Shown here in pieces: positions 2,536 to 64,000 of a stretch of DNA of 64,000 nt (position 1 is the first letter of the stretch; each line of letters opens with the position of its first letter). The translations under genes and the position numbers were made by a program. Under the pieces are notes generated by a model. It was not told the origin of the DNA and searched no databases. It saw only the letters and a list, made by a program, of their open reading frames with translations. Source of the DNA: Terriglobia bacterium (lineage in GTDB: Bacteria; Acidobacteriota; Terriglobia; UBA7540); the NCBI GenBank assembly GCA_046706005.1, contig JBJKPU010000132.1:1-64000 (forward strand), in the 5' to 3' direction.

Positions 2536-4521
2536 TCAATACGGCCTTGCCCCTTGCGTGACCAGCGGCCAATCGTCGGTGCGGAAAGGTCCGGCGGGCA
2601 ATCCCGCGCCGTTGAACAGATTTGCTGCGGGATTCGATTGCCAGGCGTAGCGCACCTGCGTGGGATCGGGAACCGACGGCGATGAAACGATAATCGTCTT
2701 GCCCTTGATGCGCGCCTCGGCCCAATACCATTTGCGGTCCTTGCCTGCAATCTGGAAACCCTCCAGCTTTCCGCCTTTGGCCACCAGGCCGCCGTTCGTG
2801 TGCGAAAAGCGCAACCGGATGTCGTGCCGCCGCCGCTTAACCGATGCCAGCGTCGGTCCCGAATACGCCACGTGCCTGCCGTAATGTTTTGCCAGCGCGC
2901 AATCGGCCAGGCGGTCGCCCACCGGCTTTTTCACCTTGGAATGAATATTGTTGGGGTCGCCCGTATCAATCGTGATGGCGAGGCACGTGTTGGGAGTTTC
3001 CGCGGCCGCCACCGCCATGGACTCGCGCACGTCCGCCCATCCGTCATCGGTGGGCGTCGAACTGCGCTGCCCGAAGCGCGGCAGACTGACGATGTAGAAG
3101 GGAAAATCGCCCTGGTCGAAAAGCTGCCGCCAGTTGGCAATCATGGCGGGAAGAATTTTGCGGTACTGGTAGCCGCGAGGAGAGTTCTGCTCGCCCTGAT
3201 ACCAGATCGCTCCGGTAATGGACATCGGCGCGACGGGCGTGAGCATTCCGTTATAAAGAACGTCCGGCTGGACGGGCCAGTTTTCAAAGCGCAGCGGCAG
3301 CGGATGCGGCGGCCGGGCGTCAACGCTCACTTTGCCTTTCCACTCGCCCGCCAGCGGAATGCTGGTGTGGTTGCCCAGTTCAAGATGCAGGACGCTGGCC
3401 TTATCCAGAAATCCGCCGTGCGGCTCGGTCTTGAAGATGCGAATGGCGATTACGTTCCGACCGGGTTTAAGCATTCCGGGCCGCATAAAATAGACGCGCG
3501 GATTTTCCACCCAGGCGCTTCCGCCTGCGAACGTTCCGTTCACCCACACGCTGTCCATGCGCTGAATTTCACCGAGGAAGATCATGGCGCGCCCCGGCGG
3601 CAGGGGATTGGGCAGAGTGATTTCTTTTCGAAACCAGACCAGAGCCGGCGCCGTCGGCACGCCGAGCGCCGCGAATCCGCCCGGAACGGGAACTTCTTTC
3701 CATGAGGAATCGTCGTAATCCGGTGCGTCCCAATGCTGCTTCAACCCGATGTCATATTTGTCGTACCAGCCCATGATGTAATTCCCGTAAGGCGGCAAAC
3801 CGTCCGCTTCTTCCTGTGCAACCGCTGCCAGCGGAACGTCAAAATCCTTCAGCGGTCGCAAGGCCGCGGCGCTGGCCCACGATTCCGCGGGCGTACCGCC
3901 CACCGCATCCACTACCAGTCCAATGGGCACGTGAAGTTGCTGCCGCAGCTTGACGCCAAAATAGTAGGCGACGGCCGAGAGCCAGTTCGCCGACTGCGGC
4001 GTAATGGCCTGCCATTTTCCACCCACAACGTTCACCGGCTTGTAAGCGGGGTGTCCGAAAACACTGAAGTAGCGAATCTGCGGAAAATTCGAATCCTTCG
4101 CCACCTGCGCACCGTTTTCGGTGAAGCGCAGCGGCAATTCCATATTCGATTGCCCTCCGCAAAGCCAAACATCGCCCACCAGCACATCGTGGAGTTCGAC
4201 GGTCTGCGGCCCCGTGATATTCATCGTGTAGGGCCCGCCCGTTTTGGGCGGCTGGATTTTCACCTGCCAGCGGCCGTCCTTGTCCGCGACTCCCGAAGCG
4301 CTGTGGCCGGCGATTTCCACCTGAACCGTTTTGCCGGGCTCCGTCCAGCCCCAGATCGCATCCGGCTTGCCGCGCTGCAGAACCATGTTGTCACCGAACA
4401 TCGTGCTGACAAACGGATGTTGATTCGTGGGCATGGCGGGGCGGGGAAACTGCGCCGGCAGCGTGCCGGCCGCCGTGAGCATTGCCAGTGTCAGTACCGC
4501 AAGAGTGCGTTTGAATTTCAT
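2536..4521 (-). CDS. sialate O-acetylesterase-like SGNH/carbohydrate esterase, secreted
   Basis: GGQSNM motif (LCGGQSNMELP) with family-wide similarity. Signal peptide MKFKRTLAVLTLAMLTAAGTLPAQ. ATG at 4521 preceded by AGGAGG. The longer table ORF to 4680 lacks an RBS. Confidence 0.85.
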   Translation of the reverse strand: MKFKRTLAVLTLAMLTAAGTLPAQFPRPAMPTNQHPFVSTMFGDNMVLQRGKPDAIWGWTEPGKTVQVEIAGHSASGVADKDGRWQVKIQPPKTGGPYTMNITGPQTVELHDVLVGDVWLCGGQSNMELPLRFTENGAQVAKDSNFPQIRYFSVFGHPAYKPVNVVGGKWQAITPQSANWLSAVAYYFGVKLRQQLHVPIGLVVDAVGGTPAESWASAAALRPLKDFDVPLAAVAQEEADGLPPYGNYIMGWYDKYDIGLKQHWDAPDYDDSSWKEVPVPGGFAALGVPTAPALVWFRKEITLPNPLPPGRAMIFLGEIQRMDSVWVNGTFAGGSAWVENPRVYFMRPGMLKPGRNVIAIRIFKTEPHGGFLDKASVLHLELGNHTSIPLAGEWKGKVSVDARPPHPLPLRFENWPVQPDVLYNGMLTPVAPMSITGAIWYQGEQNSPRGYQYRKILPAMIANWRQLFDQGDFPFYIVSLPRFGQRSSTPTDDGWADVRESMAVAAAETPNTCLAITIDTGDPNNIHSKVKKPVGDRLADCALAKHYGRHVAYSGPTLASVKRRRHDIRLRFSHTNGGLVAKGGKLEGFQIAGKDRKWYWAEARIKGKTIIVSSPSVPDPTQVRYAWQSNPAANLFNGAGLPAGPFRTDDWPLVTQGARPY

Positions 4522-60570: not shown

Positions 60571-62313
60571 TCAGGCAGCGCACTCACCGCGGCCCAGCTT
60601 CAGCGAATACGTTTCCGTATCGCCCCAATCCACGAACAAGTCTTCTGCCGCAGTCGTCACGTCGAGTACAGGTTTCAGACGCTGGATCACCGCGCTGTTT
60701 GAAGTGCGCAGCGCCCAGCTTTGGAACGATTCGAGCGCATCGCGGTCTTGCCGGTAAAATTCGATCAGCTCGCGTAAGGCTTGCGGAATGCGCCTGGCGG
60801 GCACGGTGGTCACCTGGCGTCCGAAACGGACCCCGTCGGACGAGACTTGGCCGGCCAGCATGAGCTGATAGTATGGCACCTGCTTATTGCCGACCTTCCG
60901 CGCGTTGCCATAGAGCCCGATGTCCGCAATATGATGGTGCCCGCAGGAATTCGGGCAGCCGCTGATCTTGATTCGAATCTTGCGTACCTCAGCGTCGCTG
61001 TCGTGGGCGAATTCATCCGCAAGGACCTCAGCGAGTGTCAGCGATCGCGTGATGCCCAGGTTGCAGGTGGTCGCTCCTGGGCAGCCCGTCACGTCGGCGA
61101 TGGTGCGAGCGCCGGGGGTGACGAGATCCACCGCTTTCAGGTCCTTGAAAAGCTCCTTGGCGCGATGCGTCGGCACCCAGGGGATAACCAGATCCTGAGA
61201 GATGGCGATGCGCGCCGCGGGGAGCTGATGCTTTTCCAGCACATCGGCAAGGCCGAAGAATTGCGCCGAGGAGACGTTTCCGGCGCGAAGCTTGAGCCAC
61301 ACGATGGAATAACCGCTCTGCCGCTGCGGCTGAAGGTTGTGCGCAGCCCAGTCGTCGTATTCCGAATGATGACCGTTTCCGTTCGGCGCAGGCGGCCCGA
61401 TCTTCACCAATGGCGCGGCGAGCGGGCTGGGAACCTGCATGGATTCGGGCGGAGTTGTGACCTCAGATCGCTTTTCCTCGACCAGCCGGCGGAATTCCTC
61501 AATCCCTTTGGCTCGCAGAATGAATTTCATTCTCGCCTTGAGCTTGTTCTTGTAGTTTCCATGCTCCTTGAACACGCGGAGGATCGCTTCAACGGTCGGA
61601 ATCAGCTCTTCCTCCGGCAGGAATTCCGTCAGCGTGGCGGCTTCGGTGGGCAGACTGCCGAGTCCGCCGCCCACAAGCACCTTAAAGCCCCGCCGCGAAG
61701 TACCGTTATTGCCGCGAATGCGCGCGATCAATCCGACGTCGTGGATTCCGGCTACTGAGCAGTTGCCGTCGTCCTCGCAGCCCGAGAACGCGATCTTGAA
61801 TTTGCGCGCCATTTCGTGGAAATCGGGATGCCGCAGGAAAAAGCGCGTCGTGGCGAGCGCATACGGCGTCACGTCAAACGCTTCGCCGGCGCAAATGCCC
61901 GCCAGCGGGCAGGAAGTGATGTTGCGAATGGTGTTGCCGCAAGCCTCGCGCGTCGTCAGGTCAACTTCGGCGACGATTCTCATGATCGTCGGGACATTCG
62001 CCATGTTTACAAAATGGAACTGGATGTTCTCGCGCGTCGTGACATGCCCGCGCTTCGTGGCGTATCGCTCGCCGATTTCGCCCATCACGCGCAATTGCGG
62101 CGGCGTAAGGATTCCGGAAGGAACCTTCACGCGGACCATCTGGTAGCCCGGCTGCCTTTGCCCGTAAATGCCGTGCTTCAGGCGAAAGCTGCGCAGATCG
62201 TCTTCGCTGATCTCGCCACGGCGCAGTTGGCCGATTTTCTCCTCAAAAACCGCAATCTCATCCGCAATAGCCTCGGACGTGTGCCGGGCCTCGACTTCCG
62301 CAGTCAGCATCAT
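60571..62313 (-). CDS. ferredoxin-type sulfite (or nitrite) reductase hemoprotein, siroheme/[4Fe-4S]
   Basis: Duplicated NiR/SiR half-domains. Cys cluster TGCPGATTCNLG...SGCPNSCGHHH. The adjacent cobA and the Cys-codon leader favour sulfite reductase. Confidence 0.8.
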   Translation of the reverse strand: MMLTAEVEARHTSEAIADEIAVFEEKIGQLRRGEISEDDLRSFRLKHGIYGQRQPGYQMVRVKVPSGILTPPQLRVMGEIGERYATKRGHVTTRENIQFHFVNMANVPTIMRIVAEVDLTTREACGNTIRNITSCPLAGICAGEAFDVTPYALATTRFFLRHPDFHEMARKFKIAFSGCEDDGNCSVAGIHDVGLIARIRGNNGTSRRGFKVLVGGGLGSLPTEAATLTEFLPEEELIPTVEAILRVFKEHGNYKNKLKARMKFILRAKGIEEFRRLVEEKRSEVTTPPESMQVPSPLAAPLVKIGPPAPNGNGHHSEYDDWAAHNLQPQRQSGYSIVWLKLRAGNVSSAQFFGLADVLEKHQLPAARIAISQDLVIPWVPTHRAKELFKDLKAVDLVTPGARTIADVTGCPGATTCNLGITRSLTLAEVLADEFAHDSDAEVRKIRIKISGCPNSCGHHHIADIGLYGNARKVGNKQVPYYQLMLAGQVSSDGVRFGRQVTTVPARRIPQALRELIEFYRQDRDALESFQSWALRTSNSAVIQRLKPVLDVTTAAEDLFVDWGDTETYSLKLGRGECAA

Positions 62314-62325
62314 TTCACCCCGAAA

Positions 62326-62364
62326 ATAAAAAACCCACCACCGAACTTTTGGTCCGATGGTGGG
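62326..62364 (-). terminator. intrinsic-terminator-like hairpin + U-tract in the 5' leader of the sulfite reductase gene (attenuator)
   Basis: Minus-strand RNA: CCCACCAUCGG-ACCAAAAGUU-CGGUGGUGGG followed by UUUUUUAUUUUC, then GGGGUGAA-AUG. There is no upstream same-strand gene to terminate. Confidence 0.6.
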
Positions 62365-62391
62365 CTTTCGATTAGAACCGCTGAATCTTAA

Positions 62392-62478
62392 TTACTGATT
62401 AAGGGTCATCGTCCCACACACCGGCGCCTTGGGACAGCAACAACACATGCATCCGGTGTGGTGGAAAAGACGATCCAT
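62392..62478 (-). CDS. candidate Cys-rich leader peptide MDRLFHHTGCMCCCCPKAPVCGTMTLNQ (28 aa)
   Basis: Minus-strand ORF ATG GAT CGT CTT TTC CAC CAC ACC GGA TGC ATG TGT TGT TGC TGT CCC AAG GCG CCG GTG TGT GGG ACG ATG ACC CTT AAT CAG TAA. Six Cys codons, four consecutive. Weak SD. Confidence 0.5.
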   Translation of the reverse strand: MDRLFHHTGCMCCCCPKAPVCGTMTLNQ

Positions 62479-62643
62479 AACCAGGACAAAAGTGTACAGA
62501 TACTCTGCGGCCTTTGTAAAGGGAAAAATTCCACCACCGAGTCCATCTGAGATTTGCGACCTGGAGGGTTCATAGACAGCTTGGGTTGGCCTTGCCGCAA
62601 TGGTATCTTATTTCGGCTCTGAACCGCCTTTGAGGAGGACTGC

Positions 62644-64000
62644 CATGAGAGGGTTCGCACTTTGTTTATTAGCCTGGGTCACTTTTGTTCCGGCGGGATT
62701 GGGAGAAGCACGGCCTGCCGCGCCTGTTTCAGTACAAGTTCACGAACGCGGGGTCCAAATACAACGTCAATTGCTTCCGAACATTGCGGCGTCCAATGCG
62801 TCGGCGCTCGCGATGCTTGTTCCGCAAGCCGGCCAAACTTCCGCACCGCAGGGGCAAAAACCGAATCCCTCAGCCGGCAGTTTTGCAGCCCGAGCGGTCC
62901 TTCACCGCCTGGCCGTGACGATTGGCGTCATCCTCGTGGCCCTCGCGATCCTGGGAGCACTTTTCTGGGTTAAGCGCAAGCTTTCAGCGATTCTGGAGAA
63001 ACACCGCGGCCGGCTGCGGCCCTTGCGCTTTCGCGGCCTTGAATTGGTGTCGGCGCGAACGCTATACCGGAACTTGACCGCCGCACTGCTCCTAGTCTAT
63101 GCGGCAGCCTCACTGGTCGTGACGGTCGTTGCGGTGCTGCTCATCTTCGGCCAGTTTCCGCATACTCAAAAGTATGCGCGGCAGGTGGGCTTGTGGCTCT
63201 GGATTCCGGTCGTCCAGATTGCGCGCGGCATACTGAGCTATTTGCCGCACCTGTTCTATATTCTGGTCATTATCGTGGTGGCCCGGTTTGCCCTGCGGAT
63301 CCTTTCCTTCAACTTCCGCGCGGCGGAACGAGGCGTGATCAGCCTGGAACCGTGGGTCCATCGCGATACCGCCCGGCCGACGGCGATGATTGTCAAAAGC
63401 ATCATCGTCGTCGTGACGATCTTCTTCATCGCTCCGCTCGTTCCCGGAACCGGCAGCACGGCGGCGAGAGGCATTTCCATCATCCTGGGCCTGATGATCT
63501 CCTTCGGGTCCACCTCGACGGTGGGGAACTTCGTGGCGGGCATCGTTCTGATGTACATGCGACCCTTCCAGCTCGGCGACCGTGTGAAGATGGGCGAAAC
63601 CGTGGGCGATGTTGTCGAGCGAACTTTCCTCTATACCAAAGTTTTGACCATCAAGAACGAGGAGGTCATTGTGCCCAGCCTGACGGCTCTCTCGGCGCCC
63701 ATGACAAATTTCACCGCGCGCGCCTCGGAGCAGGGGCTGATTCTCCATTCCGCCGTGACCATCGGTTACGACGCACCGTGGCGCAAGGTCCACGAGTTGC
63801 TGTTACGGGCGGCGGAGAAGACCGAAAACGCCTTGAAAGATCCCAAGCCGTTCGTCCTCCAAACCGCGCTCGACGATTTCTATGTGCGCTACCAGCTCAA
63901 CGTGTACACGTCCAATGCGGCAAAAATGGCGGAGATCTATTCGGCATTGCACCAGAACATCCAGGACGCGTTCAATGAAGAGGGTGTCGAAATCTGCTCC
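62644..64000 (+). CDS. MscS-family mechanosensitive channel; 3' end beyond the window
   Basis: GAGGAGG RBS. TM helices then the MscS pore/beta domain (GSTSTVGNFVAGIVLMYMRPFQLGDRVKMGETVGDVVERTFLYTKVLT). No in-window stop, hence absent from the table. Confidence 0.8.

Follow-up and report, generated by a model that had tools for sequence, protein, structure and literature searches.

What does a strong terminator do directly in front of a gene, when there is nothing upstream for it to terminate? This question is raised by the 64,000-nt stretch of Terriglobia bacterium DNA analysed here (the window; all coordinates refer to it). The analysed locus is the minus-strand leader of sir (62313->60571), a gene of the NirA/Sir family, which is separated by a gap of 330 nt from a divergent mscS-like gene on the plus strand (from 62645). 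A GC-rich hairpin followed by U6AU4 stands at the end of this leader; the mscS-like neighbour being divergent, no gene upstream on the minus strand is in need of a terminator. We propose that the leader is a ribosome-mediated transcription attenuator, which would sense charged tRNA-Cys and control assimilatory sir, and we give this reading a probability of about 0.85. The case was made in silico, from sequence elements, alternative pairings, conservation together with covariation, and gene association; the transcription start, translation of the leader ORF, transcription-translation coupling and the cysteine response are predicted parts of the model.

Organization of the sir leader

On the minus strand, the leader contains one sigma-70-like promoter, one 28-codon short open reading frame (sORF), the GC-rich hairpin with U6AU4, the Shine-Dalgarno (SD) sequence and the sir AUG, in this order. 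The individual elements are as follows.

62520-62491, minus strand: promoter-like site TTTACA-18-TACACT from a sequence scan, with the -35 element at 62520-62515 and the -10 element at 62496-62491
62478-62392, minus strand: leader sORF, ATG start, 28 codons plus stop, translation MDRLFHHTGCMCCCCPKAPVCGTMTLNQ
62464-62453, minus strand: segment 1 (B), CCACCACACCGG, 5' arm of the anti-antiterminator hairpin 1:2
62451-62434, minus strand: regulatory Cys codons 10 and 12-15, in UGC AUG UGU UGU UGC UGU
62424-62413, minus strand: segment 2 (C'), CCGGTGTGTGGG / CCGGUGUGUGGG, partner of segment 1 or, in the antiterminator, of segment 3
62418-62416, minus strand: sixth Cys codon (codon 21), within segment 2
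62367-62352, minus strand: segment 3 (T5), AAGCCCACCAUCGGAC, 5' terminator arm, T5 core at 62364-62354
62351-62347, minus strand: terminator loop CAAAA
62346-62331, minus strand: segment 4 (T3), GUUCGGUGGUGGGUUU, 3' terminator arm, T3 core at 62343-62334
62333-62323, minus strand: U-tract U6AU4 of the intrinsic terminator
62321-62316, minus strand: sir SD GGGGUG, with the sir AUG at 62313
62313->60571, minus strand: sir, NirA/Sir-family sirohaem enzyme of 580 amino acids, Pfam NIR_SIR and NIR_SIR_ferr

The start codon of sir is located 9 nt past the terminator end. An initial annotation of this DNA had reported the Cys-rich ORF with its UGC AUG UGU UGU UGC UGU run, and a T5:T3 terminator with U6AU4 followed by the SD and AUG of sir. 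Both were found as described; the terminator was also returned by an independent scan, as an 18-pair stem at 62369-62329 followed by U6AU4. The segment sequences it listed all exist, but its coordinates for B and C' were shifted by 1-5 nt (B is at 62464-62453, not 62454-62469). The sORF has no gene call in the identical public contig, i.e. it is unannotated.

TTTACA-18-TACACT is the sole promoter-like site that the scan returned on the minus strand within 62000-63000. The end of its -10 element is 12 nt away from the sORF AUG, so the predicted 5' untranslated region is only ∼5 nt in length; the sORF has no SD in the window leader. In the homologous loci L001, L002, L003, L021 and L115, the -35 and -10 elements are fixed in position relative to the sORF AUG, with differing spacers; the promoter of L115, the closest relative (83% Sir identity, same synteny), is TTTACA-17-TACAAT. 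The distance from the -10 end to the sORF AUG is 12 nt in the group to which the window belongs (G1) and 8 nt in a second group (G2), and no SD is present. Judged from these spacings, the sORF would be translated from leaderless or near-leaderless mRNA, with a parallel in the mycobacterial Cys sORFs (see below).

The initial annotation had also placed a segment A in the switch, with A:B and A:T5 pairings. Segment A (CGGTGGTGG, 62539-62531, minus strand) is located 5' of the -35 element, and the sequence at this place is unrelated in L115 and other G1 loci. Given this position upstream of the conserved promoter and the lack of conservation, the pairings of A were dropped, and the switch has four segments, B, C', T5 and T3.

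Cysteine codons of the sORF

Six of the 28 sORF codons (21%) encode Cys, at positions 10, 12-15 and 21, four of them being consecutive (CCCC, codons 12-15); in the long ORFs of the window, Cys accounts for ∼1%. TGY makes up 2.6% of the trinucleotides of the window, which gives a probability of 8e-5 for six or more Cys codons among 28; only 0.06 CCCC runs are expected by chance across the six frames, and the sORF run is the only one in the window outside a long ORF. The Cys content is therefore not a composition effect. The five other Cys runs of the window are all inside long ORFs, in other frames, and there is no further sORF candidate among them. Short ORFs are abundant in GC-rich DNA, and the leader could in principle be a chance ORF next to an ordinary terminator, the two having no regulatory link. 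With nothing upstream to terminate, with the above probability for the Cys content and with the conservation of the sORF in all 88 leaders compared (see below), the chance of such a coincidence is negligible, and the comparative data effectively refute it.

The sequence ATGTGTTGTTG is invariant in all 12 G1 leaders. The minor codon UGU is preferred in the G1 leaders (44 UGU and 12 UGC, a count that is inflated by the shared ancestry of the leaders), including the window sORF (4 versus 2), whereas UGC is the preferred codon in the long ORFs of the window (180 UGC versus 52 UGU) and sir itself contains 10 UGC and 0 UGU. This preference for UGU would sharpen the response to Cys-tRNA.

Conservation of the leader in homologous loci

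With the Sir protein as query, one genome per species was scanned, giving 34 loci, and a metagenome scan gave 80 more; L115 was fetched separately. A Cys-run sORF is present before sir in 88 of 88 distinct acidobacterial leaders, i.e. in every locus with enough upstream sequence, and by a strict rule the sORF is followed by a hairpin and a U-tract in 85 of them. The leader is conserved in about 90 related genomes. Among the retrieved loci, the proteobacterial and clostridial homologues have no such Cys sORF. The acidobacterial leaders are of three designs, between which no similarity in sequence is obvious apart from the Cys runs:

G1, the design of the window: M..LH.GMAMCCC..PTCGG
G2, 63 distinct sequences: MKTCCQMMCCPCxCNAAC..ISGQRSFRT
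G3: ..CCxCxCCC..SGAWR

A fourth design, MNCFNNCCCNCCCCCEIQQLKEGFIRTD, is found in two Bacteroidota genomes, Flexithrix dorotheae DSM 6795 (L024) and one Flammeovirgaceae metagenome-assembled genome (MAG), where a three-segment antiterminator/terminator lies upstream of sir-cobA-sirC-cysH. All four designs share the AUG, the Cys run, one helix joining the 3' part of the sORF to the 5' arm of the terminator, and the terminator; antiterminator-like helices were also recognized in the G3 and Bacteroidota leaders, by folding and by reading of the sequences. The distance between the sORF stop codon and T5 is 22-30 nt in nearly all G1, G2 and G3 leaders, and 17 nt in L026. The elements that recur across the designs are exactly those required by the attenuation model. 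The initial annotation had suggested looking for a conserved Cys sORF and covarying stems in related leaders; besides the sORF, compensatory changes were found in both 1:2 and 3:4, as detailed below.

Conservation extends to the peptide level within groups, the tails PTCGG (G1) and ISGQRSFRT (G2) being kept. This would suit a functional Cys-rich micropeptide, either metal- or sulfur-binding or a precursor, that is co-expressed with sir, the RNA structures then serving mRNA stability or partial termination. Across groups, however, the Cys run alone is common to the G1, G2, G3 and Bacteroidota peptides; the conserved tails map to RNA segments 2 and 3, which pair and are conserved at the nucleotide level, and a micropeptide gene would not need a strong terminator that competes with a helix from the 3' end of its own ORF. 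We consider a micropeptide function to be highly improbable as the basis of the leader.

At the nucleotide level, the G2 leader is very highly conserved; its identity is 85%, compared to 78% for the sir coding sequence, 72% for the upstream DNA and 60% for the terminator-to-sir spacer, and columns 49-100 of the G2 alignment (A3) are almost invariant. Such conservation might point to a leader that binds one ligand or protein, be it an undescribed riboswitch, a T-box-like element or an attenuator governed by an RNA-binding protein, with the Cys codons as a by-product of G/U-rich structure; riboswitch expression platforms also use terminator/antiterminator pairs. Several observations argue against it. 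An Rfam cmscan of 62200-62760 (E<=10), of the kind proposed by the initial annotation, returned only a terminator-like fragment match with 16.6 bits versus a gathering score of 88, and no match at gathering score was obtained in the four representative loci L001, L014, L023 and L024; a known riboswitch or T-box thus appears to be excluded as far as Rfam reaches. The four designs have no common aptamer-like core, and what they do have in common is an in-frame, AUG-initiated ORF with a Cys run. In the alignment, Cys is retained although its codons alternate between TGT and TGC at the wobble position. Taking both sides into account, we regard direct ligand or protein binding as a highly unlikely explanation.

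Several further features were noticed in the homologous loci. In the G2 loci, one conserved A/T-rich block, TTGATTACTTTTTTGAATGCGGTGCATCTAATCTTTG, is located just upstream of the -35 element (2675-2712 in L023, same position elsewhere); it may serve as an UP element or as the binding site of a regulator, adding control at the level of transcription initiation. The window has no counterpart of this block. In Flexithrix (L024, 2740-7171) and L025, the leader contains 9 Cys in 28 codons, its antiterminator (GGAAGGCUU:AAGCCUUCC) is strong and its terminator is weak (about -9 kcal/mol); the Sir protein there is 715 amino acids in size, and its C-terminal extension matches HEPN weakly (E = 3e-5). 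Two MAG contigs labelled as other phyla, L011 ('Candidatus Limnocylindria', Chloroflexota) and L018 ('Candidatus Udaeobacter', Verrucomicrobiota), contain a sir gene and a G2 leader of the typical acidobacterial kind; these contigs are probably mis-binned. In the flanks (+/-1-3 kb) of 116 loci, no second Cys-run sORF was found besides the sir leader, bar a few matches near locus ends; within the window and the locus flanks searched, there is no evidence for a wider Cys-sORF regulon.

Covariation of the paired segments

Covariation was analysed separately for the two larger designs. In the 12 G1 leaders, the terminated state is 89.6% paired, compared to 28-47% in slid controls; it contains four compensatory pairs, and none of 500 shuffles reached that number. 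In the T5:T3 helix of G1, pairing extends to 96.8% of the cells, and 3 pairs are compensatory. Reading of the alignment also identified compensatory changes in B:C' relative to L040 and L115. In G2, helix 1:2 (P1) and the terminator together contain 47 double-change cells versus 22 +/- 8 in shuffles (0/500), and the terminator has three compensatory pairs.

The antiterminator is also well paired. In the same 12 G1 leaders, 90.9% of its cells are paired, compared to 20-62% when slid, and it has one compensatory pair; according to the alignment, it corresponds to a C-G to U-A change of the window itself, which is matched by a change in T3. The equivalent helix of G2 is 97% paired but invariant, and hence uninformative on covariation.

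Alternative structures of the leader RNA

The leader folds more stably than every shuffle (z = -4.4). Its minimum free energy (MFE) structure consists of one long B:C' hairpin, followed by the terminator; the Cys codons are located in the B:C' loop, where the initial annotation had put them, and in the folds the hairpin extends outward to about 62478/62395. As isolated duplexes, B:C' has an energy of -23.8 kcal/mol and C':T5, which is 11 bp in length with one bulge, has -19.6 kcal/mol; C':T5 shares the T5 strand with the terminator, whose T5:T3 helix has -28.2 kcal/mol.

Since equilibrium folding of the full leader is uninformative on the switch (see below), it was replaced by folds of a transcript cut just before T3, and by an estimate of the refolding barrier. 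The ribosome was represented by a 27-nt mask, with the A site at a chosen Cys codon. In the truncated transcript without ribosome, B:C' forms and leaves T5 essentially unpaired; when the A site is put on Cys codon 10, 12, 13 or 14, C' (62424-62413) pairs with T5 (62364-62354). The two alternative structures anticipated by the initial annotation are seen in these folds, without and with the mask, respectively. The competing states are close in energy (-33 to -39 versus -31 to -33 kcal/mol). Refolding out of the 1:2 state in the absence of a ribosome has an estimated barrier of 13-19 kcal/mol, so that the 1:2 hairpin, being the first to form, should outlast the ∼1 s of T3 transcription, unless it is opened by a ribosome.

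The SD of sir (62321-62316) is unpaired in all predicted folds, which bears on a further explanation. The only experimentally studied Cys sORF, Ms5788A of mycobacteria, acts translationally, and in a mycobacterial-style leader, stalling would mainly unmask the sir ribosome-binding site, the hairpin and U-tract being incidental or partly active. One homologue, L004, has features that fit this scheme: at 2830-3000, it contains a Cys sORF, MFSLCSKTMCLMCCCR, with a CCUCC motif ahead of it, the sir SD is GGGAGG, and the hairpin is weak (-10.5 kcal/mol). The L004 leader may be a translational (SD-masking) variant of the switch. In the window, the SD is unpaired, and a hairpin of -27 to -28 kcal/mol with U6AU4 is a canonical intrinsic terminator, which is present in 85/88 leaders and shows compensatory changes. 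For the window, translational attenuation is thus very unlikely.

Proposed mechanism

The trp-type logic put forward by the initial annotation is supported, as far as models of this kind go, by the constrained folding, the 88/88 Cys sORFs, the 85/88 terminators and the compensatory changes, with B, C', T5 and T3 as segments 1, 2, 3 and 4, respectively. Transcription would begin a few nt upstream of the sORF AUG, from TTTACA-18-TACACT, and pairing of segments 1 (62464-62453) and 2 (62424-62413) would give a stable hairpin whose loop holds the Cys codons. With ample Cys-tRNA, the ribosome would traverse the sORF and either cover segment 2 or leave it to pair again with segment 1; the free segment 3 could then pair with segment 4, and RNA polymerase would terminate at U6AU4. 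When Cys-tRNA is scarce, the ribosome would stall at codons 10-15, keeping segment 1 open and segment 2 free. Segment 2 would capture segment 3 in the 11-bp antiterminator with its one bulge, no terminator would form and sir would be transcribed. If the sORF is not translated at all, both 1:2 and 3:4 would form, leading to termination, as in trp superattenuation.

Several observations weigh against this mechanism. When the full leader is folded at equilibrium, the terminator is always retained, even with a stalled ribosome; the attenuator model is thus dependent on kinetics and on transcription-translation coupling. In classical attenuators, too, the terminator typically wins at equilibrium, and the decision precedes the synthesis of segment 4. 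When Cys codon 15 occupies the A site, 1:2 remains permitted in the simple mask model. In several homologues, comprising most G2, G3 and Bacteroidota leaders and some of G1, the MFE structure of the truncated transcript shows the antiterminator even without ribosome; for these leaders, MFE alone cannot rank or discriminate the states. Covariation support for the antiterminator helix is thin at the alignment level, the helix being invariant in G2 and having a single compensatory pair in G1. Finally, translation of the sORF would rely on leaderless or near-leaderless initiation, which is hypothetical in this lineage, from a transcription start that is only predicted.

The regulated gene and the downstream heme genes

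The public gene call for sir begins at the second AUG (62310), and the public protein (P0001) is 100% identical. No NCBIfam equivalog scored above its cut-off for Sir; the best models, NirA and ferredoxin-nitrite reductase, reached less than half of their cut-offs. In public records, the enzyme is variously labelled as nitrite or sulfite reductase, and the sequence does not decide between sulfite and nitrite as the substrate. In Cys synthesis, sir provides the step that yields sulfide, and the Cys leader argues, as regulatory evidence, for a role of these NirA/Sir-family enzymes in sulfite reduction. Orthologues are co-operonic with cobA (L023) or with cobA-sirC-cysH (L024, Flexithrix); the cobA gene of G2 and Flexithrix, which either overlaps sir or lies directly next to it, is likely to be co-regulated with sir.

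The initial annotation had placed the attenuator upstream of sir and had further extended its control to the heme biosynthesis genes. The former holds, whereas the latter is doubtful. Right after the sir stop codon, one long hairpin (AGGCGCGG...CCGCGCCU, 60530-60487, minus strand, -27.6 kcal/mol) is followed by a U run, UUUCGUUUUU; ∼100 nt further on, the extended -10 element TGcTATAAT (60386-60378, minus strand) precedes the ccsA-like, hemA, hemC and cobA-hemD genes. Judged by this element, the heme genes probably have their own promoter. Because the terminator-like hairpin with its U run and TGcTATAAT lie between sir and the ccsA-like gene, the heme genes are probably not, or only partly, under the attenuator, and a single sir-heme operon is doubtful. 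A 77-residue ORF (60583-60350, minus strand) runs across the sir stop codon; Pfam and NCBIfam gave no match for it, and this ORF, uncalled in the two closest public contigs, is probably not a gene.

Significance

Cysteine is a long-standing, conspicuous gap among the amino acids with classical leader-peptide attenuators, and the only experimentally studied Cys case, that of mycobacteria, is translational. If the proposed mechanism is true, the sir leader would fill this gap with a clean terminator/antiterminator switch on a biosynthetic gene, and the cis-regulation of sulfur assimilation would become accessible for the first time in Acidobacteriota, a phylum that dominates in soils but has been little studied. 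The designs, which would have evolved independently, could serve as a natural set for studying how attenuators arise, and one carrier, Flexithrix dorotheae DSM 6795, is a culture-collection strain. For the broader proposal, that terminator-type Cys attenuation is a general control of assimilatory sulfite reduction in much of Terriglobia, invented several times and operating on SD-less, leaderless or near-leaderless sORFs, we see the odds as even. If this proposal holds, the element would be the first classical attenuator acting on transcription of a cysteine-biosynthetic gene, and would represent a second, independent 'Cys ribulon' outside Actinobacteria; it would also provide a regulatory criterion for assigning ambiguous NirA/Sir enzymes to the sulfite reductases.

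Comparison with known systems

The leader is not homologous to any described element; the proposed mechanism itself is of the enterobacterial trp/his/leu type. The initial annotation had suggested that a Cys-codon attenuator is new to this lineage. In the literature covered (full text, with most subscription journals outside the scope), no such element is described for Acidobacteriota, Bacteroidota or sulfite reductase, and the sir leader would be the first terminator-type Cys attenuator found there for a cysteine-biosynthetic gene; Cys-codon leader ORFs as such, however, are known elsewhere, in Actinobacteria and upstream of cysS of Rhodobacterales.

S-box (SAM-I) riboswitches and the Cys T-boxes of Firmicutes resemble the sir leader in that sulfur or cysteine genes are controlled by premature termination in the leader, which is relieved on shortage. 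Different from the sir leader, they contain no translated ORF, the sensor being a metabolite aptamer or an uncharged tRNA bound directly by the RNA; their Rfam models match nothing here.

A terminator-type element of similar logic is uORFC-8-2, an upstream ORF of Rhodobacterales cysS, which was predicted as an attenuator with tandem Cys codons and a terminator (Brewer et al. 2021, PMC8632094). Like the sir leader, it is a predicted ribosome-mediated attenuator, in which tandem Cys codons are combined with a terminator stem and a U run. It has two Cys codons (near codons 14-15, in the first of two stems), compared to 5-9 here, and controls the cysteinyl-tRNA synthetase in Alphaproteobacteria; its structure and sequence are unrelated to those of the sir leader, whose Cys codons are located in the loop (window) or in the 5' arm (G2) and which has no Rfam match.

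Leader peptides of actinobacterial cys operons were predicted without terminators (Seliverstov et al. 2005, PMC1262725). In M. smegmatis, the polycysteine leaderless sORF acts translationally, by unmasking the SD (Canestrari et al. 2020, bioRxiv 10.1101/834739 / Mol Microbiol 114:93); in the example of the mycobacterial 'Cys ribulon' that was studied, the poly-Cys tract masks the downstream SD by pairing with it, and the authors stated that, to their knowledge, no attenuation mechanism mediated by an upstream ORF had been described for cysteine (bioRxiv 10.1101/834739). Like the sir leaders, the mycobacterial and actinobacterial Cys sORFs have at least two consecutive Cys codons in an unannotated first ORF near the mRNA 5' end, upstream of cysteine-metabolism genes, and the signal is stalling on low Cys-tRNA. 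They belong to another phylum, share no sequence homology with the leader here, and no terminators were found for them, whereas the sir leaders combine a conserved terminator/antiterminator with an unpaired SD.

In architecture, the sir leader corresponds to the enterobacterial attenuators trpL, hisL, leuL, thrL, ilvL and pheL. Both have a short leader ORF rich in codons for the end product, four segments with mutually exclusive 1:2, 2:3 and 3:4 pairings, and one terminator just before the first structural gene; in both, 1:2 and 2:3 are similar in stability and the outcome is set kinetically by the position of the ribosome, as predicted for the sir leader. Different from the enterobacterial systems, the sir leader would sense cysteine, it occurs in Acidobacteriota and it has no similarity to them in sequence or Rfam models. 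Its sORF has no SD, and the predicted transcription start is ∼5 nt away in G1 and 0-2 nt away in G2. The regulatory codons also differ in position; those of the window are located in the loop just 3' of segment 1, and those of G2 are inside segment 1.

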